Positions 4,943-38,098 of a DNA stretch of 64,000 bases are shown in pieces. Origin of the DNA: Thermoanaerobaculia bacterium (GTDB taxonomy: Bacteria; Acidobacteriota; Thermoanaerobaculia; UBA5066; Gp7-AA6); assembly GCA_036395755.1 (NCBI GenBank), contig DASWCZ010000079.1, forward strand, positions 6,363 to 70,362, read 5' to 3'. The notes under the pieces were generated by a model. It did no database searches, was not told where the DNA came from, and saw nothing but the letters and a program-made list of their open reading frames with translations. The number at the start of each line of letters is the position of its first letter. Positions within the stretch are counted from its first letter, which is position 1. The translations under genes and the position numbers were made by a program.

Positions 4943-5530
4943 TCAGGCGGTCCTCTGCGCGAAGCGGCGCGGGTCGAACGCGAGCTCGTGCACGGTCGCA
5001 TCGGACGTCAGCTCCGGGTGGAAGGTCGCGGCGATGACGTTTCCAGAGGCGACGAGCACCGGCTCGGAGTCGCGTGTCGCGAGCACCTCGACGCCGGGGC
5101 CGACCCGGCGGATCCGGGGCGCGCGGATGAACACCGCCGGAAGGGCTCCGCCCAAACCCGGCGCGTCGACCTCGCCCACGAACGAGTCGACCTGGCGGCC
5201 GTAAGCGTTTCGCTCGACCGTGATGTCGAGCAACCCGAGCCCGTTCTGCGCCGGATGGGTGACCTCGCGCGCGAGAACGATCGCGCCGGCGCACGTCCCG
5301 AGGACCGAGCGGCCAGTCGCCGCGAAGCGACGGATGGCGTCCTCCCACGGCGCCGACTCGAAGAACTTCCAGAGGGTCGTCGACTCGCCGCCGGGAACGA
5401 CGAGCCCCGTTGCGGGTTCGAGGTCTTCCGGCCTCCGGGCCTCGAACGAGTCGAGCCCCATCTCCCTGAGCCGCCGGCCGTGGGCCGCGAAGTCGCCCTG
5501 GAGAGCCAGGACCGCGATTCCGACTTTCAC
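4943..5530 (-). CDS. pdxT: Pyridoxal 5'-phosphate synthase glutaminase subunit PdxT
   Basis: MKVGIAVLALQGDFAAH...GTCAG...ATFHPEL; GTG start; class I glutamine amidotransferase triad context. Confidence 0.85.
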   Translation of the reverse strand: MKVGIAVLALQGDFAAHGRRLREMGLDSFEARRPEDLEPATGLVVPGGESTTLWKFFESAPWEDAIRRFAATGRSVLGTCAGAIVLAREVTHPAQNGLGLLDITVERNAYGRQVDSFVGEVDAPGLGGALPAVFIRAPRIRRVGPGVEVLATRDSEPVLVASGNVIAATFHPELTSDATVHELAFDPRRFAQRTA

Positions 5531-6601: not shown

Positions 6602-8095
6602 TCAGACCACCGGCGCCGTCTCGAGGACCGAGGCCCTCGCGCGCGTTTCTCGAACTGCTTCCGCAAGGAGAGCGACGCCCCGCTCGATCGATTCCCGCTC
6701 CACGCGGGAGACCGAGAGCCGCAGCGCTCCCCGATCTTCGCCCTCCGGGTCGAAGTCTGCGCCCGCCGACACCGCGACACCCCGCGACGCGGCGGCCTCC
6801 GCGACTCTTCGGCCCGACACTGCCGGCGGCAGGACCATCCAGAAGATCGCGCTGCCCGGCTCGCCGCCCCACCACGAGAGATCCGGCAGATGTCTCGCGA
6901 GCGCGCCCGACATCTCTTTCCGCCGCGTCTCGACCTCGCGCGCCCGCGCGCTGCGCGCCTCGCGATCCAGACCCGCGCGCAGGAACGACGCGATCGCCGC
7001 CTGCAGCGGGAGCGGCGTCTGGAAGTCGGCCGTGCGCTTGACGAGGGCGAGGCGCTCGACCACCGCGCGCGGCGCCGCGAGCCAGCCGATCCGAAAGCCG
7101 GGCACGAGGTCCTTGGAAAGGGTGCCGAGCCACACGACCCGTTCGGGGCTGCGCGCCGCGAGCGGCGCCATTCCGGACTCCGGCTCCTCGTAACCGTCCT
7201 CGATGACGAGCGCGCCGGCGTCGACCGCCGCTTCCAGAATCTCCCTCCGCTTCTCGTCGGTCGCGGTGACGCCGGTCGGGTTTTGCCGCTCCGGCATGAC
7301 GTAGACGAGCTTCACGCGGCGCCCGCGCAACGCGGCGACGTCGGGCCCCTCCGGCGTCATCGGCATCGGCACGATCTCGACGCCGGCAAAACGGGCGAGA
7401 GCGAGCGCGCCCGGATACGACGGCGACTCCATCGCGACCGGATCGCGCGGGTCGGTAAAGGTTCGGAAGACGAGGTCGAGTCCCTGCTGCGCTCCGCTCG
7501 TCACCAGGATCTCTTCCGGCGACCGCGTTACGCCGCTCTCTTCCAGGCGTCGCGAGATCTCGACCCTCAACTCCTCGAGGCCGAGCGGGGGAGCGTACTG
7601 CCACAGCTCCGGCCGTCGGCTCCACGCTTCGGTCAAGGTCTGAGTGAAACGCTCGAGAGGGAAAAATCGCTCGTCCGGAGTCAGACGCGAGAAATCGGCG
7701 ACCATCGGAGCGGAAACCGGCGGGGGAGCCGCGGCCGGGATCGCGGACGCGCGGCGCGACACGAGCTCGAGCGCATCGAAGCGCCGGGAACTTCGCGCGT
7801 CGGCGCGGACGAGGGTCCCGCTCCCGACGCGCGTCGAAGCGAGGCCCTCTTCCTGGAGACGCCGGTACGCGGCCTGGACGCTGCCGCGGTTGACTCCGAG
7901 CGCCGCGGCGACTTCGCGCGTCGTCGGGAGCCGCGTCGACGCCGGGAAGAGACCGGTCTCGATGCGAGCGGCCAGAGCGGCGAACAGCTGCTCGGAGAGC
8001 GACTCTCTCGAGGCGCGATCGAGCGTGATCGAGGCGATGTGATCCAATTGGTCCGTCACCACACCAATTGTATCGGCGCAGGGAAGGAATCTCAA
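6602..8095 (-). CDS. MocR-family regulator (GntR wHTH fused to a PLP aminotransferase-like domain); PdxR-like given its position upstream of pdxST
   Basis: N-terminal GntR HTH (TTREVAAALGVNRGSVQAAYRRLQEEGL) and C-terminal fold-type I domain with LSKDLVPGFRIGWLAAP. Confidence 0.75.
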   Translation of the reverse strand: MRFLPCADTIGVVTDQLDHIASITLDRASRESLSEQLFAALAARIETGLFPASTRLPTTREVAAALGVNRGSVQAAYRRLQEEGLASTRVGSGTLVRADARSSRRFDALELVSRRASAIPAAAPPPVSAPMVADFSRLTPDERFFPLERFTQTLTEAWSRRPELWQYAPPLGLEELRVEISRRLEESGVTRSPEEILVTSGAQQGLDLVFRTFTDPRDPVAMESPSYPGALALARFAGVEIVPMPMTPEGPDVAALRGRRVKLVYVMPERQNPTGVTATDEKRREILEAAVDAGALVIEDGYEEPESGMAPLAARSPERVVWLGTLSKDLVPGFRIGWLAAPRAVVERLALVKRTADFQTPLPLQAAIASFLRAGLDREARSARAREVETRRKEMSGALARHLPDLSWWGGEPGSAIFWMVLPPAVSGRRVAEAAASRGVAVSAGADFDPEGEDRGALRLSVSRVERESIERGVALLAEAVRETRARASVLETAPVV

Positions 8096-8156
8096 GCGGT
8101 TTCGACGTTAACTATTGATGGGGAAGGAGAAAAAGGCATTTCAGCGGGGTCTTGAA

Positions 8157-8182
8157 GGGATAACCCAGCATCGAGGGATAAC
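8157..8182. promoter_or_regulatory. Two GGGATAAC direct repeats (8157-8164, 8175-8182; 18 bp apart) in the AT-richer promoter region of the MocR gene; candidate operator
   Basis: Read directly. MocR-type regulators characteristically bind direct repeats. Confidence 0.3.
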
Positions 8183-8208
8183 TCTCTACGCCATCAGTAA
8201 TTTGCCTC

Positions 8209-8475
8209 TCAGGCGCCGTGCTTTCTCAGCTCGTCGTCGAGGTTGCGTGCGAAGAGGAACTCCTCGTCTCGGGGAGACACGTTCTTGCGCTTGCCCAACG
8301 CGGTGCGGACCTTCTGCTCCATCGCGTCGAGCTCTTTGAACGACTCCGTCAGCTCACGGACGATCGCCCGCCGCACGGTGTCGTCGTCTGCCTTCTGCAC
8401 CAGGTTCAGGTTGTCCTTCAGCTTCTTCGCGATGACGCGCGAGAGATACAGCACGCGGTCGGGCGAAGGATTCAT
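8209..8475 (-). CDS. Small conserved hypothetical protein (88 aa), translationally coupled to tal (ATGA overlap)
   Basis: ORF MNPSPDRVLYLSRVIAKKL...; start overlaps the tal stop. Confidence 0.45.
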   Translation of the reverse strand: MNPSPDRVLYLSRVIAKKLKDNLNLVQKADDDTVRRAIVRELTESFKELDAMEQKVRTALGKRKNVSPRDEEFLFARNLDDELRKHGA

Positions 8476-9095
8476 CGCTCTCTTCCCGCGAGCAATTCGC
8501 CGGAGAGCGGATGCCGGAAGAGCTGTTCGATGACCGACGTGGAGATCGCGGCGACGTCGGCGCCCATCAGCGCCGCGTCGAGCACGTGGATCGGGTTGCG
8601 CAGCTCCGAGACCACGATCTGCGTCTGGAAGCCGTAGTTGTCGTACACGCGGATGATCTGCTCGACCAAATCCATGCCGATCGAGCCGACGTCGTCGAGC
8701 GCGCCCACCGCGGGAGCCACGTAGCTGACGTTCGATTTCGCCGCGATCAGCGCCTGCGCGGCGGAGTAACAGCCCGACGCGCAGACGGCGACCTGATCCT
8801 GCGCGAGCAGCCGCGCGACCCGCATTGCCTCGGGCTGCGCGGGTAGCTGCACGACGATGTCCTTTCCGAGCTTCGCGAGCTCGCGCGCCTCCTTGTACAT
8901 GCCCTTCGCGTCGGTCGAGACCGGACCGACGCAGACCGGGCCGTCGGTCAGCGAAGAGAGCTCGCGGGCGGCGCGACGTAAGTCGACCCCGGCCTTCTGA
9001 GCGGCCGCCGCGGAGAGCCAGACGCCGTCCAGAAGGCCCCACTCCCGCACTCTTTTCGCCTCATCGGCGATCGCGCTCTCGAGGAAAAACCGCAT
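8472..9095 (-). CDS. tal: Short-form transaldolase / fructose-6-phosphate aldolase family (TalC/Fsa-like, ~207 aa)
   Basis: MRFFLESA...MYKEARELAKLG..IVVQLP...VAPAVGALDD: typical short transaldolase family layout. Confidence 0.8.
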   Translation of the reverse strand: MRFFLESAIADEAKRVREWGLLDGVWLSAAAAQKAGVDLRRAARELSSLTDGPVCVGPVSTDAKGMYKEARELAKLGKDIVVQLPAQPEAMRVARLLAQDQVAVCASGCYSAAQALIAAKSNVSYVAPAVGALDDVGSIGMDLVEQIIRVYDNYGFQTQIVVSELRNPIHVLDAALMGADVAAISTSVIEQLFRHPLSGELLAGRER

Positions 9096-9189
9096 GGGTG
9101 GCGGGGGATTCTACCCCTCACCCTTTTCGCACAGGCTCCGCGGCGAATCCCTCGGGCCTCTCGGGTGAGTTCGTCCTCGGGATCGCGAC

Positions 9190-11838
9190 TTAAGGGAGGT
9201 CCTCGTCCAAGAACGGAGTGGGTTCCCCCATTCCTTTGGACTTGGGCCCAGGGTTCAGAGTCTGATCTCCGGTTCCGGGCAGCGCCGCCTGGGGCTCGTC
9301 GTCGTTCTCGTCCGGCTCGGCGAGCTTCGCGACGGCGACGACGCGGTCCCCTTCGTCCAAGTTGATCAGCCGGACCCCCTGGGCGGCGCGGCCCGTCTCC
9401 CGGATGTCTTTGACCTTGATCCGGATCAGCATCCCGCTCTGCGTGATGAGAAGGAGCTGGTCGACGTCGGTGACCGACTTGATGCCGGCGACTGGACCGT
9501 TCTTTTCGGTGACCTTGATGTTGATCACGCCGGAGCCGCCGCGCGCCTGGAACCGGTACTCGGACGCCTCGGACCGTTTCCCGTATCCCTTCTCGGTCAC
9601 CGTCAGAAGATGGCCGTGCTCCTCGACGACTTCCATCTCCACGACGTAGTCGCCGTCTTTCTTGAGAGCGATGCCCCAGACCCCCGTCGTGTCGCGGCCG
9701 GTCGGACGCACGTCGGTCTCCGCGAAGCGGATGCCCTGTCCGAGGTGGGTGCCGATGAAGATCTGGCGTGTTCCATCGGTGACGCGTACGGAGAGGAGCT
9801 CGTCCCCATCCTCGACGTTGATCGCGATGATCCCGCCGGAGCGGACGTTCGAGTACGCCGAGAGGGCGGTCTTCTTGACGAGCCCCTGTCGGGTCGCGAA
9901 GACGAGGTACTGGTCCTCCGGGAAGTCCTTCGTGGAGGCGAGCGCCACGACGCGCTCGTTCGGATCGAGGTTCAGCAGGTTGACGATCGCCTTACCGCGC
10001 GTGGCCGGGCCGAGCTGCGGGACCTCGTACACCTTGATCCAGTGCATCCGGCCGCGCGAGGTGAACGCGAGTATGTAGGCGTGCGTCGAAGCGACGAAGA
10101 GGTGCTCGACCACGTCCTCTTCCTTCGTCGTCGCGCCGATGCGGCCTTTGCCGCCGCGCCGCTGCGCGCGGTAGAGGGACAGGGGAGAGCGCTTGATGTA
10201 ACCGCCGCGGGAGACCGTGATCACCATGTCCTCTTCGACGATCAGGTCCTCGATGTCGATGTCCGACGCTTCCGCGATGATCTCGGTCCGGCGCTCGTCG
10301 CCGAAGAGTTTCTTCGCCTCCTGGAGCTCCTCGACGATGATCTCCAGGACGAGATTCTCGGACCCGAGGATCTCGCGCAGCCTGGCGATGAGCGCGAGCA
10401 CTTCCTGGAACTCGGCGACGATCTTTTCGCGCTCGAGTCCCGTCAGCCTCTGCAGGCGCATCTCGAGGATGGCCTGCGCCTGGACCTCGTCCAGCCGCAT
10501 GACGTCCTCGCTCTTCTTTCCTTTCGCCGGCGTGTCGCCGAGCTTCACTCCAGTGAATTTCTCGAGGCCCGCGCGCGTCATCGAGACTTCCGAGATCAAC
10601 CGTTCCTTCGCTTCCTTCGGGTCCTTCGATCCGCGGATGATCTTGATGACGAGGTCGATGTTCGCGAGGGCCAGCGCGAGGCCGCGCAGAAGGTGCGCGC
10701 GCTCCTCCGCCTTCTTGAGGTCGAACTGGGTGCGCCTGATGACCACCGACTTGCGGTGATCGATGAAGTGGCGCAGCAGGTCGGCGAGCGGGAGGATCTT
10801 CGGCTGGTTTTCGACGATCGCCAGGAAGATGATCCCGAAGGTCGACTGCATCGGGGTGAGCGCGTAGAGCTGGTTCAGGACGACCTGGGCGTTCTCCCCG
10901 CGCTTCAGCTCCACGACGACCCGGATTCCCTCGCGGCTCGACTCGTCGCGGAGGTCGGCGATCCCCTCGATCTTCTTTTCGTTGACGAGCTCGGCGATCC
11001 TCTCCACCAGCTTCGCCTTGTTGACCTGGTAGGGGATCTCGGTCAGGACGATCGATTCCTTTTCGCCGCGCGCCGCCTTTTCGATCACGGCCCGGGCGCG
11101 GACCTGCACGATGCCGCGGCCCGTTTTGTACGCGTCTCGAATCCCCTGGGCGCCGTGGATGAAACCGGCGGTGGGGAAGTCCGGGCCCTGCATCTTGCGC
11201 ATCAGCTGCGAAAGCGAGGCGTCGGGGTGCCGGATGAGCTCGATCGTCGCGTCGACGACCTCGCCCAGGTTGTGCGGCGGGATATTCGTCGCCATGCCGA
11301 CCGCGATGCCCGAAGATCCATTGACCAGAAGGTTGGGAAACTTGGCCGGCAACATCGTCGGCTCGACGAGCGAGCCGTCGTAGGTGGGCACCCAGTCGAC
11401 GGTCTCCTTGTCGATGTCCTCGCCGATCAGCTCCGCCGCGAGCCGCGTCAGGCGAACTTCGGTGTAGCGCATGGCCGCTGCGTTGTCGCCGTCGACCGAG
11501 CCGAAGTTGCCCTGTCCGTCGACGAGCGGATAGCGCATCGAGAAGTCCTGCGCCATCCGGACGATCGAGTCGTACACGGAGCCTTCGCCGTGGGGGTGGT
11601 ACTTGCCGAGCACGTCTCCGACGATGCGGGCGGACTTCTTGTACGGCCGGTTGTGGAAGTTGCTCTGCTCCCACATGCCGTAGAGGCAGCGGCGGTGGAC
11701 CGGCTTCAGCCCGTCGCGGACGTCGGGCAGCGCGCGGCCGATGATGACCGACATCGCATAGTCGAGGTAAGACCGGCGGACCTCGTCCTCGATCGTGACG
11801 GGGACTTTTTCTTCGGGGGTCAGGAGGTTCGGGCTCAT
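9190..11838 (-). CDS. gyrA: DNA gyrase subunit A
   Basis: N-terminal [25 protein letters not shown]-terminal beta-pinwheel repeats, acidic C-terminal tail. Confidence 0.95.
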
Positions 11839-22988: not shown

Positions 22989-24865
22989 ACGGCTCGGCGA
23001 CGTTCGACGTGATCGTCGTGGGCGCCGGCCACGCCGGCTGCGAAGCGGCCCACGCGGCGGCGCGCATGGGTCGGACGACCGCGCTTCTCTCGGGAGATCT
23101 CTCGGCGATCGCGCGGATGTCGTGCAATCCGGCAATCGGCGGTCTCGCGAAGGGGCAGCTCGTCAAGGAGGTCGACGCACTCGGCGGTCTGATGGGGCGC
23201 CTCGCCGACGCGGCGGGGATTCAATTCAAGATCCTCAATCGCTCGCGGGGCCCGGCGGTGTGGGGGCCGCGGGCACAGTGCGACAAGGCGCTCTACTCGC
23301 GGCTCGCCGCACAGGCCCTCTCGGAAACGCCGAACCTCCAGCTCGTGGAAGGCATGGCGGAGGAGCTCGTTGAGGAAGAGGGACGGGTCGCCGGCGTCGT
23401 CACGGGGAATGGAACGCGGCTCGGCGCCCGGGCCGTCGTCGTGACGACCGGAACCTTTCTGCGCGGTCTCATGCACACCGGGGAGCGGCGGACGGAGGGA
23501 GGCCGCGTCGGCGAAGCGGCTGCGGTCGGCCTGTCCGCGGCGCTCGCTCGGGCCGGGCTCGCACTCGGACGGTTCAAGACCGGCACGCCGCCGCGCGTCG
23601 AGCGGGACACCGTCGACTACGATCTCTGCGAGCCGCAGCGCGGCGACGATCCCCCCGTTCCCTTCTCCTTCCGGACCGTCGCGCTGCCCTCGCACCAGGC
23701 TCTCTGCTGGCTGACGAGCACGAATGAGCGCGTTCACGACCTGATCCGCGCCAACCTCCACTTGAGCCCGATGTACTCCGGACGGATCGTCGGCATCGGA
23801 CCGCGCTACTGCCCTTCCGTGGAAGACAAGGTGGTCAAGTTCGCCGACAAGCCGCGGCACTCGATCTTTCTGGAGCCGGAAGGATGGGACGCGCCGGAGA
23901 TCTACATCAACGGTCTCTCGACGTCTCTGCCCGAGGAAGTGCAACGCGCGATCCTCCGGGAGGTCGCCGGTCTCGCAAACGCGGAGATGATCCGGCCGGG
24001 CTACGCCGTCGAATACGACTTCTCGTTTCCCGACCAGCTCCGGGGCACGCTCGAAGCCCGCGACGTCCCCGGACTCTTCCTCGCCGGCCAGATCAACGGC
24101 ACCTCGGGATACGAAGAAGCTGCGGCGCAAGGGATCTGGGCGGGCATCAACGCGGCCCTCGCGGTGCGCGGAGAGGAACCGTTCGTGCTCGATCGTTCGG
24201 AAGCGTACGCCGCCGTCATGGTCGACGACTTGACGACGAAGGGCCTGGAGGAGCCCTACCGGCTTTTCACATCGCGAGCGGAGCACCGACTGCTCCTCGG
24301 CGTGGACTCCGTTCTGCCCCGCCTCCTGCCTCACGCACGCCGTATCGGGCTCGTGTCTTCCGCGGAGTACTCGCGGGCGATGCGATCCGAGGAGCGTCTG
24401 CGCCGAGCCGAGTCGGAGCTGCGGGCAGCGGAGATCCATCCGGACCGCGAGACGCGCGAAGAGTTCGAGAAGACGATCGGGATTCAGCTCGCCGAGCCGA
24501 CGACTCTACATAAACTGCTGAAAAGACAGGACTTATCTGTAGAGCTGCTGATGCCTTACGGCCCGGAGAGTCTCGGGGCGCTCTGCCGCGAAGAGCGGGC
24601 GATCCTGGAGAGCCGCGTGCGTTACGAGGGATACATTCGCCGCGAGACCGATCGGGTCGAGAGGATGAAGCCGCTCGAGGGTCGCCGGATTCCGGAAGAC
24701 TTCGAGTACGAATCCCTCCCCGGGCTCTCGCGCGAGGTCATCCAAAGCTGCACGCGGAAACGTCCCCGCACGCTCGGCGAAGCGGGCCGGATCCCCGGAG
24801 TTACTCCCGCCGCCGTCGCGATAATCTGCGCGCATGTCGTCCGGTCCCGAACCTCTTCGGCCTGA
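22985..24865 (+). CDS. mnmG: tRNA uridine 5-carboxymethylaminomethyl modification enzyme MnmG
   Basis: FDVIVVGAGHAGCEAA FAD motif; ~626 aa. Confidence 0.9.
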   Translation: MNGSATFDVIVVGAGHAGCEAAHAAARMGRTTALLSGDLSAIARMSCNPAIGGLAKGQLVKEVDALGGLMGRLADAAGIQFKILNRSRGPAVWGPRAQCDKALYSRLAAQALSETPNLQLVEGMAEELVEEEGRVAGVVTGNGTRLGARAVVVTTGTFLRGLMHTGERRTEGGRVGEAAAVGLSAALARAGLALGRFKTGTPPRVERDTVDYDLCEPQRGDDPPVPFSFRTVALPSHQALCWLTSTNERVHDLIRANLHLSPMYSGRIVGIGPRYCPSVEDKVVKFADKPRHSIFLEPEGWDAPEIYINGLSTSLPEEVQRAILREVAGLANAEMIRPGYAVEYDFSFPDQLRGTLEARDVPGLFLAGQINGTSGYEEAAAQGIWAGINAALAVRGEEPFVLDRSEAYAAVMVDDLTTKGLEEPYRLFTSRAEHRLLLGVDSVLPRLLPHARRIGLVSSAEYSRAMRSEERLRRAESELRAAEIHPDRETREEFEKTIGIQLAEPTTLHKLLKRQDLSVELLMPYGPESLGALCREERAILESRVRYEGYIRRETDRVERMKPLEGRRIPEDFEYESLPGLSREVIQSCTRKRPRTLGEAGRIPGVTPAAVAIICAHVVRSRTSSA

Positions 24866-25576: not shown

Positions 25577-26353
25577 ATGCGAAAAATGGGGCGCGTGATC
25601 GCAATTGCGAACCAGAAGGGGGGAGTCGGTAAGACCACCACGGCTATCAACCTCGGCGCTGCTCTGGCGGCGTTCGACCGAACGGTCGTCCTCGTCGACT
25701 TCGACCCCCAGGCGAACGCAACCTCCGGTCTGGGCCTGGCCGACCGCAAGAACGGGTCGAACGCCTACGACGTTCTGCTCGGGGCCGACCCCGCGCAAGC
25801 GCTTCTCCAGAGTGGATTTCCCAATTTTTCGGTCCTGCCGTCCGGCCGGGACCTCGTCGGGGCGGAGATCGAGTTGGTCGGCCAGGACGGGCGCGAACGC
25901 CGGCTCCGGGAAGCGATCGACTGCATCCGGAACCAGTTCGATTTCATGTTCGTCGACTGCCCGCCATCGCTCTCGCTCTTGACCGTAAATGCCCTCACCG
26001 CCGCGGACTCGGTGCTGATTCCCCTCCAGACCGAGTATTTCGCGCTCGAGGGGTTGAGCGAGCTGCTCGAGTCGGTCGAACGGGTTCGCCACTCCTTCAA
26101 TCCGGGCCTGGAGATCGAGGGGATTCTCCTGACCCTGTACGATGAGCGAACGAACCTCGGCCGACAGGTCGTGGAGGACATCCGTCAGCACTTCGGAAAA
26201 CTGGTCTACGACACCGTGATCCCGCGCAACGTGAAGCTCGGAGAGGCACCCTCTTTCGGCAAGCCGGTCCTGGCCTACGACGTCAAATCGAAGGGGGCAG
26301 CGGCCTATCTCTCTCTCGGACGAGAGGTTTTGAAGAGGAGGGCGGTTCGATGA
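25577..26353 (+). CDS. parA: Chromosome partitioning ATPase ParA/Soj
   Basis: IAIANQKGGVGKTTTAINL deviant Walker A. Confidence 0.9.
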   Translation: MRKMGRVIAIANQKGGVGKTTTAINLGAALAAFDRTVVLVDFDPQANATSGLGLADRKNGSNAYDVLLGADPAQALLQSGFPNFSVLPSGRDLVGAEIELVGQDGRERRLREAIDCIRNQFDFMFVDCPPSLSLLTVNALTAADSVLIPLQTEYFALEGLSELLESVERVRHSFNPGLEIEGILLTLYDERTNLGRQVVEDIRQHFGKLVYDTVIPRNVKLGEAPSFGKPVLAYDVKSKGAAAYLSLGREVLKRRAVR

Positions 26354-27201
26354 CCCAGAAGCAGGCTCTCGGACGGGGTCTTTCGGCGCTCCTGCCCGGG
26401 CGGGAGGAGGTTCCACGGGAAACGAGTGGTGCGCGGGAGGTGGAGATCGGCCATCTCGTGCCGAACCGTTTCCAGCCGCGACGGGACTTTTCCGAGGCGG
26501 GGCTCGCCGAGCTCGCCGCTTCGATCCGCGAACAGGGGATCGTCCAGCCGATCGTGGTCACGCCGCGGGGCGAAAAGCTCGAGATCGTCGCGGGTGAGAG
26601 ACGGTGGCGCGCCGCGGCGATCGCCGGGCTGACGAAAGTACCGGTCGTGTTCCGGGAACGGCAGTCGGAGACCGATCTTCTCGAGGCCGCCCTCGTCGAG
26701 AACCTCCAGCGCGAGGACCTGAACCCGCTCGACGCGGCCGAAGCGTATGCCCGGCTCAAAGAGCAGTTTCGAATGTCTCACGAGAGGATCGCCGACCGGG
26801 TCGGCAAGGACCGCACGACGATCTCGAATGCCCTGCGGCTTCTGAAGCTTCCTTCGAGCGTGAAAGATCGGGTGCGCTCCGGGCTTCTTTCGGGAGGGCA
26901 CGCCCGCGCGCTCGCGTCTCTGACGTCGGCGGACGATCAGGAGCGGCTCGCGGAGGAGATCGTCCGCCGCGGTCTTTCGGTCCGGCAGGCCGAAAAACGC
27001 GTCGCGAGCTTCGGGAGAGCGGATAAGCTTCGGCGAGAACACCGTCGCGATCCGTTTACCCGGGACGCCGAGGAGAAACTCTCCCGGCGCCTGCGGTCGC
27101 GCGTGCGAATCGTGCGCCGCCGTCGCGGAGGGAGGGTCGAGATCGCTTTCGGTTCGGAAGAGGAGCTCATCGGTCTTTACGATCGGCTTGCGCGCGCCTG
27201 A
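26350..27201 (+). CDS. parB: Chromosome partitioning protein ParB/Spo0J
   Basis: GERRWRAA ParB box, HTH, overlap with parA. Confidence 0.9.
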   Translation: MTQKQALGRGLSALLPGREEVPRETSGAREVEIGHLVPNRFQPRRDFSEAGLAELAASIREQGIVQPIVVTPRGEKLEIVAGERRWRAAAIAGLTKVPVVFRERQSETDLLEAALVENLQREDLNPLDAAEAYARLKEQFRMSHERIADRVGKDRTTISNALRLLKLPSSVKDRVRSGLLSGGHARALASLTSADDQERLAEEIVRRGLSVRQAEKRVASFGRADKLRREHRRDPFTRDAEEKLSRRLRSRVRIVRRRRGGRVEIAFGSEEELIGLYDRLARA

Positions 27202-27269
27202 GGCGAGGGCGCGGCGAGCCGGAAGCTGTGGATGGAATCAGGGCGGATCGAACCAGGAAGGAAGGGGTC

Positions 27270-27665
27270 ATGAAAGGGAAGACAGAGGAAGCGACGTTGA
27301 ACGGGTTTCTGGATCGTGGGAGCCACCTGAGCGGTGATCTCAAGTTCGAGGACGGGTTCCGCATCGACGGAAAGTTCGAAGGAAAGATCACCTCGGGGAG
27401 CGAGCTCGTCGTCGGCGAGAACGCGGACGTCGAAGCGGAGATCCACGTCGAGAGACTCTCGGTCAACGGCACTCTGCGGGGAAACGTCGTCGCGACCGAG
27501 CGGATCGAGCTTCACCCGAAGGCCCGCGTGCTCGCGGATCTGACGACACCCGCGCTCGCCATCGAGGAAGGAGCGTTCTTCCAGGGCTCTTGCAAGATGG
27601 GACAGGAAGCGCCCTCGAACGTGGTGGGGATGCCAGCGCCGGCAGCTGGAGAGCGGCGGGGCTAA
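27270..27665 (+). CDS. Bactofilin (DUF583) cytoskeletal protein
   Basis: Beta-helical repeat pattern (G.L.G...G.V.G); RBS GGAAGGAAGGGG before ATG 27270. The track ORF starts 14 codons earlier. Confidence 0.7.
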   Translation: MKGKTEEATLNGFLDRGSHLSGDLKFEDGFRIDGKFEGKITSGSELVVGENADVEAEIHVERLSVNGTLRGNVVATERIELHPKARVLADLTTPALAIEEGAFFQGSCKMGQEAPSNVVGMPAPAAGERRG

Positions 27666-27738
27666 ACTACTGAATATACGTAACTTAGAGACATAAGCCT
27701 TCGATCCCAGCCCTCGGTCAAGCGTCCTTCCGTCCGGG

Positions 27739-27763
27739 TGATCTTGGACTTTGATCTTGGACT
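27739..27763. repeat. 13-bp tandem duplication TGATCTTGGACTT x2 in the leader of the ATP synthase operon
   Basis: Read directly. Confidence 0.5.
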
Positions 27764-27887
27764 GCTCGTCGGTTTGACCGCTTCGGGAGCGTGTGCTATT
27801 CATCCGCGCTCCGGCGCGGTCACACAAGCGGTCTTCGTTCTCTCCCGGTCCGATCCCTAAAATCGCGAGGAAGGCGACGCCAGCTCC

Positions 27888-28322
27888 ATGATCAAAGCCC
27901 CCGACGTGACGCTTCTCTACGTGATGTTCGCGTTCGTCCTCTCGTACGCGATCCTGAAGCGCTTCCTCTTCGGGCCTCTCGGCGCGATCCTGGCGGAGCG
28001 GGACCGGGAAGGGCGCGAGGCGTCCCGGATTCACCAGGAGAGCTTGAGGGAGCTCGAGCGAACGGTCGCGGAGGCAGAGCGCCGGCTCGCGGAAGCGCGG
28101 CGCGAGGCGTTGAGGGAGCGCGAAGCGCTTCGCGCCGAAGGCCTCGCGAAATTCGAAAGCCAGCTGGCGCAGGCGCGCCAGGAAGCGACGACGTCCATCG
28201 AAGCCGCGAGTCGAGAGATCGGCGCCGAAGTGCAAAAGGCAGCGGCCGAGCTCTCGACCCGGGCGCGGGCGCTCGCCGTCCTGCTGGCGGAAAAAATCCT
28301 CGGACGGAAGCTCGCCGCGTGA
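27888..28322 (+). CDS. atpF: F-type ATP synthase subunit b' (one N-terminal TM, then an Ala/Glu/Arg-rich coiled coil)
   Basis: TM then REALREREALRAEGLAKFESQL...; precedes a second b-type gene. Confidence 0.7.
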   Translation: MIKAPDVTLLYVMFAFVLSYAILKRFLFGPLGAILAERDREGREASRIHQESLRELERTVAEAERRLAEARREALREREALRAEGLAKFESQLAQARQEATTSIEAASREIGAEVQKAAAELSTRARALAVLLAEKILGRKLAA

Positions 28323-28933
28323 TCGACGGCCGGAAGAGCGTTTCGGACGCGGGTCGGCGTCCGCTCGTCTGGGGGCTGTTCGGGAGCGTCCCGCTCGCGC
28401 AGCAGGAGGCCGGCGAGCACGCGGCCACTTTCCTGGGTCTGCCCCTCTGGCTCTGGCAGATCGTCAACCTGATCCTCTTTCTGGGCGTGATGCTGTATTT
28501 CGTGGCGCGGCCGCTCGCGGCGATGTTTCGAAAGCGCCAGCTCGAGGTCGAACAGCGGCTCGAGGAAGCGAAGGAGCTTCGCGCGGAAGCGGCGCGGCTC
28601 GAAGCGCAGGTGCACGACCGGATGGTCCGCCTCGACCAGGAAATCGTGGAGATCCGGGCCCGCGGGGTGGCGGAGGGAGAAGCCGAGCGCGCCGCTCTGT
28701 CGGAGAAGGCGGACCTGGAGGTGGAGCGCGTGCGCCGGGAGGCGGAAGAGGAAATCGGGCGACGTCTGGCCGCCGCGAAACAGGAGCTGCGTCGAACGGC
28801 AGCGGATCTGACCGCGGGCGCGGCGCGCGAGCTGCTTGCCGGAGAGATCAACGACGAGGACCGCCGGCGGCTCCTCGAGGAAAGTGTCGCGCGGCTCGCG
28901 GAGAAGAAGCGCTCGGAGAACGCGGGATCGTGA
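28319..28933 (+). CDS. atpF: F-type ATP synthase subunit b
   Basis: GTG start overlapping the upstream stop; TM (LWQIVNLILFLGVMLYFV) followed by a coiled coil. Confidence 0.7.
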   Translation: MIDGRKSVSDAGRRPLVWGLFGSVPLAQQEAGEHAATFLGLPLWLWQIVNLILFLGVMLYFVARPLAAMFRKRQLEVEQRLEEAKELRAEAARLEAQVHDRMVRLDQEIVEIRARGVAEGEAERAALSEKADLEVERVRREAEEEIGRRLAAAKQELRRTAADLTAGAARELLAGEINDEDRRRLLEESVARLAEKKRSENAGS

Positions 28934-29460
28934 GCCGATTCGCACGTCCCTACGCGCAGGCGTTTCTCGAGACGGTTCCGACGGGCTATGACGTCGAAGC
29001 TTTTCTCGCGGCGGCGGGGGCGATTCAGCGGGCGATCGCACAGGACGCGCGCCTGAAGCACTTCCTCATGGCTCCAGCCATTCCGGTCGACGCGAAGCGC
29101 CGGGTCTCAGATGACCTTGCCGCCCGGGCCGGCGTCGACGAATTCGGCCGCCGGTTCCTCCGACTCGTCCTCGAGAAGCGGAGGATCGTGGCGCTGGCCG
29201 AGATCCTTTCGGCGATTCGCGCCGTGCACGATCGAAAATCCGGGATCATGGAGGCGCGGGTCACGGTCGCTGCCCCGCTCGACGCCGCGGAGAGGGCCCG
29301 GATCGAGCAAGCGCTCGCACAGCAGATAAACCGCCGCGTGCGGATGAACGTCGAGGTGGATCCGAAGATCCTGGCCGGTTTCGTGGCGAGGGTCGGCAGC
29401 GAAGTCTTCGATGCGTCCGCGGCGCGGGCGATCGAGAGGTTCCACGAAACGGCTGGGTAA
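28930..29460 (+). CDS. atpH: F-type ATP synthase subunit delta (OSCP)
   Basis: OSCP-like 176 aa; position b-delta-alpha. Confidence 0.8.
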   Translation: MSRFARPYAQAFLETVPTGYDVEAFLAAAGAIQRAIAQDARLKHFLMAPAIPVDAKRRVSDDLAARAGVDEFGRRFLRLVLEKRRIVALAEILSAIRAVHDRKSGIMEARVTVAAPLDAAERARIEQALAQQINRRVRMNVEVDPKILAGFVARVGSEVFDASAARAIERFHETAG

Positions 29461-31957: not shown

Positions 31958-33427
<1,470 letters not shown>

Positions 33428-33452
33428 GACGGCTGTCGTAGCGCGCCGTCTA

Positions 33453-33538
33453 ACATGGCGTTGCGGCGGACTCGCCGCCTCGCATTCGCTCGAGCCGCTC
33501 GCTACGCTCGCTCGGCTCACCGCTGAACGCCCGACCGT
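33453..33538 (+). repeat. Copy 1 of an ~85-95 nt imperfect direct repeat (ACATGG..GCGGACTCGCCGNCCTCGCATTCGCTCGRGCC..GCTCGCTCGGC..GAACGYCCG) right after atpD
   Basis: Aligned by eye to 34391-34475; ~75-80% identity. Confidence 0.5.
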
Positions 33539-33584
33539 TAGGCGTGCTTAGATGATCATTGAACGTAGGGTTCTGGAATAATAA

Positions 33585-34230
33585 ATGACGATATTCGGCA
33601 GACTTCGCTCGTCTCTCGCGATTGCGGCGCTGATTCCTTGCGGAGTCGCCACCGCGCAGAACCTCATTCGGGACCCGACGTTCTCGTCGGGGATCGGGGC
33701 TTGGACCACGCGAGGCGCACTGCCCTCAAGATTGGACTGGAATGGAGGTCCAGGGGCTGATGGAGCAGTTGGCTTCGCCCGACTGAGCGCACTGACTGGA
33801 GGTCCAGGAGCGTTCTTCGGAAGAGTCTGCCTTCCAGCCCGACCAGGGGTGGTCTATTTATGGGGGCGGCTATCTCCGATTTCTGTCTGCCCCAGATGCT
33901 AGTGCCCAGTTCACCCTTAGCTTCTCGGGGGACTCCGCTTGCGCAGGTCCTATTCTCCTTCACGCTGGTGGTCCCCAACTCTCTGGCTCTCTGGCGAGCC
34001 CTAACACGTGGTATCTGAGACCAGGGCAAGATGTCGCTGCTCCCTCAGGCGCCAACAGCGTTAGCTTTGAGATTCAGCTCACCACCTTGTCTAACCCTCT
34101 CCGCAGTGTTGACTTCGACAATGTATATTTCGGCCCCCCAGCCGTCGTTCCGATGCTTTCAATCTCGAACCTACTGCTTCTGGCCGCCGCAATGGCAGCC
34201 GTAGGTCTCTGGCGCTTAGCGAGTCGATGA
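33585..34230 (+). pseudogene. Frameshifted gene for a secreted protein: signal peptide plus N-terminal part in frame 0 (33585-33902), then the C-terminal part in the +1 frame ending in a hydrophobic segment and basic tail (VPMLSISNLLLLAAAMAAVGLWRLASR)
   Basis: The frame-C translation runs from ~33790 to the TGA at 34228-34230 without an M start. G5 homopolymer at ~33862. Markedly lower GC than the surroundings. Confidence 0.4.
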
Positions 34231-34390
34231 ATGTCTCTGCCCCAAGAACTGGCTTCATTCTGGATCCGCCATTGAAGCCGCAAACTGTATGCTCTTAGCA
34301 TATCTGGCTGTTGCCGATATTTCAGACTTAGGTAGGAATGGAGACGGCCGCCAGGCCGAGCGAGCGGTCCGACCGGGGAACAACGGCCAT

Positions 34391-34475
34391 ACATGGTATT
34401 GAAGCGGACTCGCCGGCCTCGCATTCGCTCGGGCCCAGGTTTTGCTCGCTCGGCCTGGCGCGGAACGTCCGTCTC
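34391..34475 (+). repeat. Copy 2 of the direct repeat flanking the frameshifted secreted-protein gene
   Basis: See copy 1. Confidence 0.5.
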
Positions 34476-34609
34476 GACTGGAGACTTCTATGGGCAGGAT
34501 CACTCGTCGCGACTTCGTAAGTATTAGTGCCGCGGGCGGGCTCATAGCTCTTGGATCTGATCCGGCACGCTTTGACCGCCGGCGGGATGAAAGCAAAGGA
34601 GGAAGACCG

Positions 34610-34942
34610 ATGCCGTTCTATCTGACCCGGTTCAGTTACACGCCAGCGACTTGGGCGAAGCTCATCAAGAACCCCGAAGACCGCCGAGCGGCAGCCAGGC
34701 AGTACATCGAGGCGGTCGGCGGAAAGCTGCACGGTTTCTGGTATGCCTTAGGCGATCACGACGGATACAATTTGTGGGAGGCTCCGGATAACGTCTCGAT
34801 AGCAGCCACGACGATCGCGATCAACGCCGGCGGAGCGCTGAGCTCCCTCCAGACGACTGCCTTGCTGACCGTCGAGGAGACGCTCGCAGCCCTGAAGAAA
34901 GCCTCATCGATCAAGTATCGGCCACCGGGAGAAAAGGGATAG
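34610..34942 (+). CDS. GYD-domain protein (110 aa from the ATG with strong RBS AAAGGAGG). An in-frame upstream extension from TTG 34442 / ATG 34490 encodes a Tat-type signal (RRDFVSISAAGGLIALGS).
   Basis: MPFYLTRFSYTPATWAKLIKNPEDRRAAARQYIEAVGGKLHGFWYALGDHDGYNLWEAPDNVSIAA matches the GYD family. Confidence 0.55.
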   Translation: MPFYLTRFSYTPATWAKLIKNPEDRRAAARQYIEAVGGKLHGFWYALGDHDGYNLWEAPDNVSIAATTIAINAGGALSSLQTTALLTVEETLAALKKASSIKYRPPGEKG

Positions 34943-35158
34943 CAGCACTCCCCGCTCGAATCGGTCTTGGTCTATCAACGCTCGGCGCCTGACCAGGAGT
35001 TGTGGGTTCGGCGCCGCGCTTCGCCAGGCGACCGTTGGCCGTCGATGGTGAGGTGCCCTACCCGAGACCCGGTGCCTCGACAGACTTCGACCATCCCGAC
35101 CGAGGGGAGAACAGCGCCGTCTGAGGTTGCGAGGCGCCTTCGGTGATAATCCGGCGCC

Positions 35159-35953
35159 ATGGATCTCGGAATCGCCGGCCGCGTGGCGATGGTCGCGGCA
35201 GCGAGCAAGGGCATCGGGCGAGGGGTCGCGACGGCGCTCCTCGGCGAAGGATGCCGCGTGTCGATCTGCGCGCGGACGGCGGAGCAGCTCGAGTCGGCGC
35301 GGGAGGAAATGGCCGCGGCGGCGCCGATCACGGAAGTCCTGGGCGTTCCGTGCGACGTGACCAAGGAGGAAGAGCTCGCCGCCTGGCACCGCGTGACCGT
35401 GTCCCGGTTCGGCCCGGTCGAGATCCTCGTCACGAACACGGGAGGACCGCCCGCCGCGCGATTCCTGGACCTGACGGAAGCCCAGTGGCGCGAGGGGATC
35501 GAAGGGGTGCTCTTCAACGTCGTGCGCCTCTGCCGGCTCGTCCTTCCGGAGATGCGCAAGCGCCGCTGGGGCCGGATCGTGCACCTGACCTCGCTCGCCG
35601 CGAAGCAGCCGATCGAGCTCCTGACCGTGTCGAGCACCCTGCGCGCCGGCCTCTCCGCGCTCACCAAGACGATGTCCAACGAGTTCGCGGGCGAAGGCGT
35701 CCTCGTCAACGCGGTCATGCCCGGGCACATCCTGACGGACCGCCAGGTCGAATTGAACGAAATCCGCTCCCGCGAGGAGGGAATCTCCGCCGACGACTAC
35801 ACTCGACGGCTCGCTGCGGCGATCCCGCTCCACCGCCATGGCCGGCCGGAAGAGATCGGCGACGTCGTCGCCTTTCTCGCGAGCGAGCGGGCGAGTTACG
35901 TCACGGGCGCCACCCTGCAGGTGGACGGCGGAGTCATTCAGAGCACGTTCTGA
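35159..35953 (+). CDS. Short-chain dehydrogenase/reductase (SDR) family oxidoreductase
   Basis: [12 protein letters not shown] cofactor motif; 264 aa. Confidence 0.8.
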
Positions 35954-35966
35954 CGAGAGGAAGCCG

Positions 35967-36362
35967 ATGAAACTCAAGCTGAAGGTCGTCACGCCCACCC
36001 GCACCGTGGTCGATTCCGAGGCCGACTTTGTCGAGATGCCCGGCGAGCTCGGTTACCTGGGCATCCTGCCAGGACACACTCCGCTCATCACGGTCGTCAA
36101 GACGGGCGTCCTCTCCTTCAAGAGTGACGGTTCCGAGCGCGCCCTTGCGATTACGGCGGGCTTCGCGGAGGTCTCGAACGACGTCGTGACCGTTCTCGCG
36201 GACTCGGCCGACCAACCGTCCGAGGTCGACGTCGCGGCGGCGGAGCGGGAGCGCGCGCAGGCGGAGGAGGAATTGAAGACGGCGGGCCGGGAAACGCTCG
36301 AGCAGATCCGATCGAAGCTCGAGCTGGCCGAGGCGAGGCTCGCGGTGGCGAAGCGGAGCTGA
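35967..36362 (+). CDS. atpC: F-type ATP synthase subunit epsilon
   Basis: MKLKLKVVTPTRTVVDSEADFVEMPGELGYLGILPGHTPLIT; RBS GAGGAAG; separated from atpD by a 2.5 kb insertion. Confidence 0.85.
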   Translation: MKLKLKVVTPTRTVVDSEADFVEMPGELGYLGILPGHTPLITVVKTGVLSFKSDGSERALAITAGFAEVSNDVVTVLADSADQPSEVDVAAAERERAQAEEELKTAGRETLEQIRSKLELAEARLAVAKRS

Positions 36363-36364
36363 CT

Positions 36365-38098
36365 TCAGAAGACCGATGCCATCGAAACGGCGGGCACGAA
36401 GCCGGACGGTGACGGTCGGCTCCAACCCGGTCCGCGAAGCGCTCGGCCCGGCGTCCTGCCGGTCAGCTTTCCTCCGTCCACGACGAGCACGCCGTTGACG
36501 GCGACGAAGCGGAACCCTTCGCTGTAGCGGTTCGGGGCCTCGAACGTCGCGACGTCGCTGACCGTCCGGGGATCGAAGACCGCCAGGTCCGCGGGGAAGC
36601 CCTCCTTGACGAGACCGCGGTCGGAGAGCCCCGCGGCCTCCGCCGCAAACGACGTCATCTTCCGGATGGCCTCTTCCAGCCGCAGAATTTTCTCGTCGCG
36701 GACGTAGTGCCCGAGGATCCGCGCCGCCGAGCCCCAGCCCCGCGGGTGCGATCCCTCGTGCGAGAAAGGCCCGTCGGTCGCCTTCGCGGGCGAGTCGGTT
36801 CCGAAGGAGACGAGCGGGTGGGCGAGAGCGGCCCGGACGTCCTTCTCGTCCATGATCGAGATGATGCAGGACACGTTGGCGCGATCAGCGAGGACGAGGT
36901 CGATGAGCGCGTCGCGCGGGTCTTTTTTTTCTTCGTCGGCGATTTTCGCGATCGTCTTGCCTTCGTAAGCCTTGAGCTTGTCGGAGAGGACCGATCCGAC
37001 CATGACGCCTTCCGGACCGCCGGAGCCCAGGTACTGGTTCTCCCAGTCGGTCGTGTCGCGCGCCATGTCCTCGCGGGCGCGCTCGCGCGTCGCCGGGTCG
37101 GAGAGGCGTTTCAGGAGGGCCTCGCGTCCGCCCTCGCGGACCCAGGGGGGGAGGCAGGCGTCCAGGCCGTTGGACGCGCGGTTGTACGGGTACTGGTTCG
37201 CACTGACGTCGAGACCCTCCGTGCGCGCCGCCTCGATCTTCTTCAAGACCTCGGGCATCCGCCCCCAGTTCGGCTTGTAGGCGGTTTTCAGATGCCAGAT
37301 CTGTGTTCGCACCTTCGCGTTGCGCGCGATCGAGAAGACCTCCTCGAGCGAGGAGTCGATGCGAGAAGACTCCGACCGCTGGTGCGTGAAATAGGCGCCG
37401 CCGTGGCGCGCGGCGACTTTCGAGAGCGCCGTGAGCTCCTCGGTCGTCGAGTAGATGTTGGGAATGTACTGGAGCGATGACGAGACGCCGAGCGCGCCCT
37501 CGCGCATCGCCTGTTCCAGCAGCGACTGCATCGAGGCGATCTCGGTCGACGTCGCCGCGCGCCTCTCTTTGCCGATGACGTAACTCCGAAGCCCTCCGGA
37601 ACCGATGAACGTTCCGAGGTTGATCGCGGTGCCGCGCCTCTCCAGCGTCTTGAAGTAGCCGTCCAGGGTCCGCCAGTCCGGCCACACGCCGTATTTCTTG
37701 TAGGTGTCACGCTCCTCGTCGATCAGCCCCTGGTTGAGCGGCGCGATCGACACGCCTTCGCCCGTCACTTCGGTCGTGATCCCCTGCGTCACTTTCGACG
37801 CGGCCCGTCCGTCGACGAGGACGTTGTACTCGGACTGTCCCAGGAGATCGATGAACCCGGGCGCGACGATAAGACCGCGCGCGTCGATCCGCCGTTTCGC
37901 CGGGCGCTTCCCGAGCGGTCCGATCGCGACGATCCGACCGTCGCGGACCGCTACGTCCGCGACGAACCAGGGCGCGCCGGTTCCGTCCACGACGCGGCCA
38001 CCCTCGAAGACGAGGTCGTCGATCGCCGGAGCGCGCGGTGCGAAAAGCGCGATGGACGGCAAAGCCAGGAGGGCTCCGACCGCGATGAGCTTCTTCAT
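36365..38098 (-). CDS. Secreted amidohydrolase of the D-aminoacylase / N-acyl-D-amino-acid deacylase family
   Basis: Signal peptide MKKLIAVGALLALPSIALFA; GGRVVDGTGAPWF..DVAVRDGRIVAIG..IDARGLIVAPGFID. Confidence 0.7.
   Translation of the reverse strand: MKKLIAVGALLALPSIALFAPRAPAIDDLVFEGGRVVDGTGAPWFVADVAVRDGRIVAIGPLGKRPAKRRIDARGLIVAPGFIDLLGQSEYNVLVDGRAASKVTQGITTEVTGEGVSIAPLNQGLIDEERDTYKKYGVWPDWRTLDGYFKTLERRGTAINLGTFIGSGGLRSYVIGKERRAATSTEIASMQSLLEQAMREGALGVSSSLQYIPNIYSTTEELTALSKVAARHGGAYFTHQRSESSRIDSSLEEVFSIARNAKVRTQIWHLKTAYKPNWGRMPEVLKKIEAARTEGLDVSANQYPYNRASNGLDACLPPWVREGGREALLKRLSDPATRERAREDMARDTTDWENQYLGSGGPEGVMVGSVLSDKLKAYEGKTIAKIADEEKKDPRDALIDLVLADRANVSCIISIMDEKDVRAALAHPLVSFGTDSPAKATDGPFSHEGSHPRGWGSAARILGHYVRDEKILRLEEAIRKMTSFAAEAAGLSDRGLVKEGFPADLAVFDPRTVSDVATFEAPNRYSEGFRFVAVNGVLVVDGGKLTGRTPGRALRGPGWSRPSPSGFVPAVSMASVF

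Follow-up and report, generated by a model that had tools for sequence, protein, structure and literature searches.

In a 64-kb stretch of DNA from a Thermoanaerobaculia bacterium of the phylum Acidobacteriota (hereafter the window, in whose coordinates positions are given), the genes for the beta and epsilon subunits of the F1 ATP synthase, atpD and atpC, are separated by 2,539 bp (33428-35966) that hold accessory genes and two copies of a ~100-bp direct repeat, R. Comparison with related loci makes it likely that this gap has grown stepwise in one clade of Thermoanaerobaculia, with the gene for an SDR-family oxidoreductase (SDR) as its old, a GYD-domain gene (GYD) as its later and a secreted-protein gene (SEC) as its recent component, and that the interval is a hotspot of gene gain, not one cassette. 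An original prediction had recognized that about 2.5 kb split atpD from atpC, which is confirmed, and had interpreted this DNA as a horizontally acquired cassette. Of this interpretation only a part has stood up: the genes are inserted relative to the ancestral state and SEC looks foreign, but they did not arrive jointly.

The interval between atpD and atpC in the window and its relatives

The interval extends from the end of the atpD stop codon (33427) to the ATG of atpC (35967). Its left conserved anchor, atpD (31979-33427, plus strand; Pfam ATP-synt_ab 4e-67), has its start taken from the gene call in the identical contig L165 (L-numbers denote relatives' loci), with a GTG at 31970 open as well; its right anchor, atpC (35967-36362, plus strand; Pfam ATP-synt_DE_N, PF02823, 2.8e-27), encodes a product above the TIGR01216 cut-off (117.1 bits versus 67.25). 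The relatives' loci were found by searches with atpC and with the SDR protein, two collection scans included, and arrangements and counts are among the matches listed. In this material atpC is found within ~300 bp of atpD in 78 of 78 Acidobacteriota genome loci and in ~60 metagenome loci, which bears out the original statement that epsilon normally follows beta directly, and none of these loci has an SDR, GYD or SEC gene between the two. As the nearest outgroups (L001, L089 and L091; AtpD 86% identical) equally show an atpD-atpC gap of only 3-7 nt, adjacency of the two genes is taken as the ancestral state.

In the most basal SDR-bearing relative, L164 (AtpD 90% identical to that of the window), the order is parB-bactofilin-atpF'FHAGD-SDR-atpC with nothing else and with spacers of 62 and 65 nt on the two sides of SDR. 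In L163 (AtpD 95%), atpD is followed by a minus-strand gene for 232 aa, an MFS gene, a 116-aa gene, a cupin gene, an 82-aa gene, SDR and rifampicin-phosphotransferase-like fragments before atpC is reached. The closest sister species show atpD-MFS-cupin-R-GYD-SDR-atpC (L088, AtpD 98%) and atpD-ΔMFS-ParE-type toxin-antitoxin genes-cupin-R-GYD-SDR-atpC (L086, AtpD 99%), while the order of the window, atpD-R-SEC-R-GYD-SDR-atpC, is shared with L165 (AtpD 100%) and carried by four data sets in all (L081, L082, L083 and L165). In L160 and L161, with an SDR 83-84% identical, SDR-atpC and the downstream amidohydrolase gene are kept and different genes are found upstream, in L161 the series toxin-antitoxin-redoxin-GNAT-ANT-peptidase. 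The region from atpD (or its side) to SDR-atpC thus has at least five alternative contents, namely none, MFS-cupin, ΔMFS-toxin-antitoxin-cupin, toxin-antitoxin-redoxin-GNAT-ANT-peptidase and SEC. Besides the window's own population, GYD occupies this position only in L086 and L088, and SEC was found here only in the own population, again among the matches listed. A neighbour-joining tree of AtpD and AtpA recovers ((((window, L165), L088), L163), L164) as monophyletic in 96 of 100 bootstraps, sister to L001 plus L089.

Comparison of the junction in relatives, as the original prediction had advised, consequently gives a different answer for each gene, with SDR shared at the same position and native in composition, GYD confined to the sister species and SEC specific for the population. 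An ancestral arrangement with all three genes in native composition, which had been named as the outcome speaking against acquisition, is accordingly found for SDR, in part for GYD and not for SEC.

The composition of the genes agrees with this putative age order of an old SDR, an intermediate GYD and a recent SEC. Relative to 34 genes of the window, with a G+C content at third codon positions (GC3) of 0.85±0.04, SEC deviates strongly (0.55-0.59, z about -6 to -7), the GYD leader and the GYD domain have 0.50 and 0.75, and SDR and atpC have 0.89 (z of a measure like the codon adaptation index, +1.2) and 0.87, respectively. Low GC is thus confined to a part of the insert and does not extend to SDR, which is native. 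Across the loci, GC3 is 0.68-0.76 for GYD and 0.62-0.75 for the redoxin and toxin-antitoxin genes; among the relatives' genes MFS, cupin and SDR look native, and the toxin-antitoxin, redoxin, GNAT, adenylyltransferase and GYD genes look atypical.

How a core operon could have become receptive to such genes is suggested by the sequence around SDR-atpC. SDR and atpC are 13 nt apart (cgagaggaagccg), and atpC has its own Shine-Dalgarno-like GAGAGGAAG at 35956-35964, both as originally predicted; the junction is conserved in L086, L088, L160 and L161. Upstream, a [G/C]ATAATCC element is located 8 nt 5' of the SDR ATG in six loci (window, L086, L087, L088, L160 and L161), in the window as the -10-like hexamer GATAAT (35145-35150, plus strand), and the remaining upstream sequence shows no relation among the more distant of these loci. 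No Shine-Dalgarno sequence precedes the SDR ATG. This suggests that SDR-atpC is a transcription unit of its own, probably leaderless, with the hexamer as its putative promoter, and the conserved promoter-like element argues that atpC is independent of read-through from atpD. L161 has a peptidase gene on the minus strand that starts 50 bp 5' of SDR, and atpD is not found within 7 kb, so that SDR-atpC must have its own promoter there. As L164 and L163 do not have the ATAAT, the promoter is probably younger than the SDR insertion.

The pentamer ATAAT occurs four times in the window, namely in the 35145 region, at rsmG, at SEC, where it ends 2 nt before the ATG, and at 43830 within a coding sequence; two of the four sites are promoter-like. 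At rsmG (gidB; region 24821-24865) the ATG (24834) follows 8 nt after the ATAAT, inside the last 32 nt of mnmG (gidA), and this ATAAT-N8-ATG layout, as at SDR, suggests that leaderless starts are used in the organism.

Integrating these observations, the following course of events is proposed. In the ancestor of the clade, as the loci show, a native, class-wide SDR gene took up a place between atpD and atpC, which were formerly 3-7 nt apart. In most of the clade, judging from sequence conservation, a separate and probably leaderless mRNA would then have arisen for SDR-atpC; atpC would be translated by means of a Shine-Dalgarno sequence of its own, 13-17 nt past the SDR stop, and epsilon would be made independently of atpD transcription. 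Since epsilon expression would no longer need transcription from atpD, the atpD-SDR junction would be free to accept DNA, and two very conserved flanks make good recombination anchors. With the constraint gone, the atpD-SDR interval may have turned into a permissive site between two very conserved anchors, at which the observed pattern places MFS and cupin early, GYD in the immediate ancestor of the species group and SEC last, in this population. The latest exchanges are found between R repeats, with SEC, cupin (L086/L088, with a truncated upstream copy) and redoxin (L161) as the contents of R-X-R modules.

Several points weigh against this proposal. In L160 and L161 atpD is not within the 7 kb examined, and these loci document the SDR-atpC linkage and not the full interval. 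The tree is built from two proteins by neighbour joining, and, as the relatives are those among the matches listed, closer kin with other arrangements might exist. The promoter and the leaderless start are deduced solely from the -10-like hexamer, with no clear -35 element found and no sigma-70 consensus promoter in a consensus scan. Read-through from atpD may still occur, since no consensus terminator lies between atpD and SDR; terminator-like sites in the scan were not above shuffle expectation. L163 and L164 have no ATAAT, and in L164 SDR is probably co-transcribed with atpD. Finally, that the own promoter gave rise to the hotspot is a causal link which we infer.

As to the wider locus, parA, parB, a bactofilin gene, atpF', atpF, atpH, atpA, atpG and atpD follow each other on the plus strand of the window, and a convergent amidohydrolase gene comes after atpC. 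The parA-parB-bactofilin-atpF'-atpF-atpH block (25577-29460) is conserved with L164 (1-2934; AtpD 90% identity). The atp cluster has two genes for b-type subunits; atpB and atpE, for the a and c subunits, are not in the cluster and must be located elsewhere. In L164, both spacers flanking SDR (6939-7000 and 7796-7860 of that locus) consist of short tandem motifs (aggtccaaggtccaaattccaaagtccaaagt and ggtaggtggtgggtggtaggtggtag), and these may be remnants of the first insertion or repeats with a regulatory role. In L086, a ParE-like toxin and a small antitoxin gene are accompanied by an HTH antitoxin gene (1238-2000), and L161 encodes, in 1675-5028, an HTH antitoxin, a small upstream toxin-like ORF without Pfam match, a GNAT acetyltransferase and a PF04439 nucleotidyltransferase, the latter from a resistance-type gene family. 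In the spacer between GYD and SDR, a 124-bp stretch (34967-35090) is specific for the window's population: it is missing from L086, L087 and L088, in which window position 34966 joins directly to 35091, and no other copy was found in the window or any locus examined.

The R repeats and the exchange of genes between them

R copy 1 (33440-33544, plus strand; nhmmer E 1.9e-25) begins 13 nt past the atpD stop, and R copy 2 (34384-34484, plus strand; E 7e-22) is found directly 5' of GYD, nhmmer E values for the two being about 1e-22 to 1e-25. The imperfect direct repeats of the original prediction hence exist, but they flank SEC alone and not the whole insert, and no repeats bounding the whole atpD-atpC interval were found. 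In a profile search of ~2 Mb of Acidobacteriota DNA, full-length R was detected twice in the window and in L165, once each in L081, L086 and L088, twice in L161 and three times in L167, and nowhere in the sampled DNA outside these variable regions; two pattern scans of viral contigs gave zero matches.

Alignment of the window copies with those in L086, L088, L161 and L167 identifies the single full-length R 5' of GYD in L086 and L088 as orthologous to R copy 2. The left 45 bp of R equally precede the cupin gene in these two loci, an R pair flanks the redoxin gene of the same hotspot in L161, and in L167 the R copies separate small ORFs 5' of another Tat-GYD gene, with an IS110 fragment adjoining. 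HTH-R-cupin-R (L086), HTH-R-redoxin-R (L161) and atpD-R-SEC-R (window) thus correspond to one another. All R copies are co-oriented with the genes, and the distance from stop codon to R is ~0-26 nt, except for R copy 2, which lies 153 nt past the SEC stop, with a partial inverted copy of the R core (34346-34376, found by inverted-repeat search) in this space. R copy 2 is itself composite: its left half is closer to copy 1 (84-95%), and from ~34444 rightwards it is 94% identical to L086, with a breakpoint near 34444 that separates 94% from about 70% identity to L086. R is shown to be associated with gene swapping, which may be site-specific or driven by homology. For homologous recombination in the flanks after DNA uptake, the mode of exchange expected at hotspots of the minimal-mobile-element type, the breakpoint near 34444 is an indirect indication.

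Several identities of R were considered and rejected. R is not a repeat dispersed across the window, as only two copies occur in 64 kb, nor a small ORF, as indels between copies break every frame. A tRNA-derived attachment site is discarded with no tRNA gene found in the 64-kb window, and a known RNA family with a negative Rfam search, in which the sole match on 33000-36500 at E<=1 was a chance match to a eukaryotic element. As a structured element, R fails in individual folds and in RNAalifold.

Two observations touch on R. The inverted copy has a 17-nt core (34349-34365) that is fully complementary to 34444-34460 of R copy 2, and a long hairpin (34340-34480) results, with a ΔG of about -42 kcal/mol and fold z-scores of -3.8 and -4.7 on the two strands; L081 has one stem mismatch. 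Situated between SEC and GYD, this hairpin could serve as a barrier to transcripts or as a site of their processing. Secondly, a 23-nt stretch just 5' of the SDR promoter-like element (35114-35136, GCGCCGTCTGAGGTTGCGAGGCG) is 74% identical to positions 33443-33465, at the left end of R copy 1, with the orthologous sequence in L086/L088 less similar; it could be a decayed R end or a chance similarity.

Beyond the association with swapping, R might constitute the sequence-conserved, non-hairpin sites of an undescribed, non-integron gene-cassette exchange system of Thermoanaerobaculia, which would dock single genes in a few chromosomal slots. If this were true, the R-X-R modules with SEC, cupin, redoxin or small ORFs would be cassettes and the beta-epsilon gap one of the slots. 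We consider this system doubtful. The sequence core of R is conserved (~68% mean column identity with long invariant runs). SEC homologues in L168-L171 occur without R, by which SEC as a cassette travelling with R was rejected.

It is unlikely that R represents integron-type attC sites, or an integrase-less attC cluster, with SEC, cupin, redoxin and the small ORFs of L167 as cassettes moved by a site-specific recombinase, although a number of features would fit. R and ORFs form co-oriented, tightly packed arrays with a spacing of ~380-940 bp (two copies each in the window and L161, three in L167), different genes take the same R-X-R slot in L086 and L161, and in the ~2 Mb sampled R was found in variable regions only. 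The ends of R copy 1, GTCTAAC and GTTAGGC, are complementary (duplex z -3.1) and fit RYYYAAC/GTTRRRY; L161b has GTCTAAC/GTTTAGA, and L167a (GTTAAGC) and L167b (GTTAGCC) have the right end only, so that these three show GTTA- or GTTT-type right ends. Furthermore, genes for an aminoglycoside-type adenylyltransferase and a GNAT protein follow R in L161, and the IS110 fragment adjoins the L167 array. However, in seven copies R folds with z-scores from -0.5 (copy 1) to +1.6, none better than shuffled sequence, and the RNAalifold consensus fold is weak (-7.6 kcal/mol) and without covariation. Conservation of R in sequence and not in structure is the opposite of what characterizes attC. Complementary ends are found in only two of nine copies, five copies being without one or both ends, and the breakpoints are inside R (~34444 in copy 2; after ~45 bp 5' of cupin) and not at the G|TT core. 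No Phage_integrase family member was found among the called genes within ±6-8 kb of any locus examined, and SEC has homologues elsewhere without R.

The SDR, GYD and SEC genes

SDR (35159-35953, plus strand, 264 aa; Pfam adh_short_C2 6e-51) is above the gathering scores of both adh_short and adh_short_C2 (173.7 and 144.8 bits; cut-offs 27 and 26.6) and has the N-terminal glycine-rich dinucleotide motif AASKGIGRG (residues 14-22). The 120 best homologues listed are 67-93% identical, 254-278 aa in length (almost all 264 aa) and, where an organism is named, mostly from Thermoanaerobaculia or Acidobacteriota, with one from Gemmatimonadota. The catalytic set of canonical SDR proteins is Ser-Tyr-Lys (YxxxK). 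The family is without the canonical YxxxK: in a BLASTP alignment with Escherichia coli FabG, Ser and Arg of 'SSTLR' take the places of Y151 and K155 (about residues 157-162 of the window's SDR, 'VSSTLR'), and SSTLR is present in 10 of 10 orthologues (as SSTVR in homologue P0116). The Tyr is missing as well in the closest solved structures, PDB 6jh7 and 5vps. The SDR family may work by a different mechanism or be no dehydrogenase at all.

It might be proposed that selection keeps SDR beside atpC on account of a joint function with the ATP synthase, for instance in redox-linked regulation or in the assembly of epsilon. The SDR-atpC adjacency is retained in L086, L088, L160, L161 and L164 while the upstream genes change, the SDR-atpC gap is 13-17 nt in most loci and 65 nt in L164, and SDR, with its atypical Ser/Arg active site, is, to judge from a mean column identity of 82%, under strong purifying selection. 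We nevertheless give this proposal little credence. In L163, gene fragments on the opposite strand, 2.7 kb in all, interrupt the SDR-atpC junction, a 70% SDR orthologue is located far from any atp gene in an unrelated context, the sister loci L001 and L089 and all other listed Acidobacteriota loci have atpD-atpC without SDR, and no literature link between SDR and ATP synthase was found. The L163 insertion (7792-10443 of that locus) consists of three pieces, all on the minus strand, of a gene for a rifampicin-phosphotransferase/PEP-utilising enzyme (PPDK_N, Rph_4th, PEP-utilizers); the SDR-atpC link can hence also be broken, and the inserted gene is itself decaying.

GYD (34490-34942, plus strand, 150 aa; Pfam PF08734 1.7e-21, 76.4 bits versus a cut-off of 31.4) was originally described as a GYD-domain gene with an upstream Tat-type leader, and this leader runs in frame from ATG 34490. 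It encodes MGRITRRDFVSISAAGGLIALGSDPA, which combines a (S/T)RRxF(L/V)-type motif with a run of hydrophobic residues and a cleavage region of small residues. The 150-aa form aligns over 99-100% of its length with homologues that are 148-167 aa long and 72-87% identical, and an alignment of 12 database proteins and the L086 ortholog shows the motif (T/S)RR[DEN]F conserved in these 13 homologues while other leader positions vary. The leader is part of the gene, and the protein is predicted to be exported by the Tat pathway. Counted with its leader, the GYD protein of 150 aa has 93-95% identity to those of L086 and L088, of which the latter has lost the leader and retains the short form only. The domain itself has a start ATG at 34610 behind a strong Shine-Dalgarno sequence, AAGGAGG, which gives a 110-aa domain-only form. 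Long homologues all have an invariant internal Met, preceded in nearly all by GG-x-P or a close variant, and as this means GGAGG, a Shine-Dalgarno sequence, in the DNA, a single gene could give rise to an exported 150-aa and a cytoplasmic 110-aa form. The GYD gene moves, since domain-only homologues ~90% identical are found in unrelated contexts. A literature search on the GYD domain retrieved nothing relevant.

SEC (33585-34230, plus strand) was located by frame analysis, and the original description of a lower-GC, frameshifted secreted-protein gene proved accurate. Its single frameshift is due to one extra G in the G-run 33862-33866, GGGGG instead of GGGG in L081 and L165, and these two independent assemblies (L081 from Logan, L165 a 122-kb ENA contig) encode an intact SEC of 214 aa. 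Over 12.6 kb, L165 matches the window at 99.93% identity with the extra G as the sole indel, and the frameshift represents an error of assembly or else a rare allele. The protein combines a signal peptide with a CBM-like beta-sandwich and a putative anchor of IPTL-CTERM-like type. Its 18 homologues (209-255 aa, 43-59% identical to the intact protein) form a small family that shares the signal peptide, the beta-sandwich and a VPTLS-hydrophobic-basic tail; the tail of the window/L081 protein (VPMLS...WRLASR), which alone is below the cut-off of Pfam IPTL-CTERM (PF18203), aligns to that of family member P0134, which scores 25.5 bits against 20.8. The AF2 model (pLDDT 84) gives Foldseek matches to CBM16, CBM22 and CBM4, and on the basis of this model SEC is most likely a surface-anchored glycan-binding protein. 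The AT-rich stretches, seen in the original prediction as marks of the insert, are SEC coding sequence: gttgacttcgacaatgtatatttcgg encodes VDFDNVYFG, of which the D-F-D-N, F and G residues are invariant across the SEC family. With its composition and restricted occurrence, SEC looks like a recent foreign acquisition.

It is highly improbable that a single cassette with direct repeats at its ends brought in SEC, GYD and SDR at one time by recent horizontal transfer. Such a cassette would explain that the interval is absent from most Acidobacteriota, that part of the insert is low in GC and that direct repeats exist. As a whole unit it should be absent from close relatives, but SDR occurs in L164, L163, L160, L161, L086 and L088 and is a native gene whose presence here extends to relatives in which AtpD identity has fallen to 90%, and GYD is common to L086 and L088, both without SEC. 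Equally, instead of a uniformly atypical composition three different GC3 values are found (SEC 0.55-0.59, about 0.57; GYD 0.75; SDR 0.89), the repeats flank SEC only, and no integrase or transposase ORF was detected in the interval by ORF and Pfam analysis. An assembly artefact, a chimeric contig joined at repeats, can practically be dismissed, as in spite of a probably metagenomic origin, of the homopolymer frameshift and of R repeats that could mislead assemblers the order atpD-R-SEC-R-GYD-SDR-atpC-amidohydrolase recurs in the independent 122-kb ENA contig at 99.93% identity, and parts of the arrangement recur in Logan, JGI and NCBI assemblies from other samples.

Comparison with known systems

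Stepwise growth of the gap, as favoured here, means that the beta-epsilon adjacency was broken once and that the gap then kept growing and turning over. It would be a natural example of a core operon tolerating intrusion, with a new internal promoter that probably made a permissive site for accessory genes. For a poorly studied phylum, the points raised are leaderless transcription of SDR-atpC, a swap-associated ~100-bp repeat and a widespread GYD protein with predicted Tat export. Knowledge of the ATP synthase itself is unchanged, and hotspots between core genes are already known.

The F1 ATP synthase block is among the most stable gene adjacencies, and the beta-epsilon pair is among the most stable gene pairs in bacteria, usually translationally coupled. 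In natural splits of the atp genes, which leave function intact, cyanobacterial and chloroplast atpBE are located apart from the genes for the other subunits, and alphaproteobacterial atpHAGDC is apart from atpIBEFF'; to our knowledge, beta and epsilon stay together in these cases. The window resembles them in that subunits are produced from more than one transcription unit, with the a and c genes equally outside the cluster. It differs in that the break occurs exactly between beta and epsilon, with epsilon paired with an unrelated SDR and accessory genes filling the gap. The F1 ATP synthase gene block has been listed as a conserved block in Pelagibacter (bioRxiv 10.64898/2026.04.03.716430), and a search of the literature for insertions in the atp operon of Acidobacteria yielded nothing relevant.

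The closest solved relatives of the window SDR are PRK08339-type SDRs (PDB 6jh7, 5vps and 5va8; E 5e-52 to 7e-49, full length), which share with it the loss of YxxxK in the aligned segment; we know of no genomic link of these proteins to the ATP synthase.

The attC sites of integrons are imperfect hairpins, conserved in structure and variable in sequence, with the core sites RYYYAAC (R'') and GTTRRRY (R'). Similar to integron cassettes, the loci discussed here have co-oriented single ORFs split by a ~100-bp element, slots with differing contents and, in copy 1, RYYYAAC/GTTRRRY-like ends. Unlike attC, R is conserved in sequence, has no hairpin potential or covariation, shows internal breakpoints and is not accompanied by an integrase at the loci examined.

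Similar in kind are hotspots flanked by core genes. 'Minimal mobile elements' described in Neisseria are reportedly hotspots of horizontal gene transfer between conserved core genes, and pangenome surveys are said to have found chromosomal integration hotspots in such positions. The interval of the window agrees with these in being bracketed by the conserved atpD and SDR/atpC, in a content that varies by lineage, in a cargo mostly atypical in composition and in the absence of an integrase or transposase. It differs in its place within the F1 ATP synthase genes, where it parts beta from epsilon, and in that its newest exchanges are bounded by a specific ~100-bp repeat. The case is thus a further example of a known phenomenon, the hotspot of horizontal gene transfer between core genes, at an unusual site and with an uncharacterised repeat in addition.

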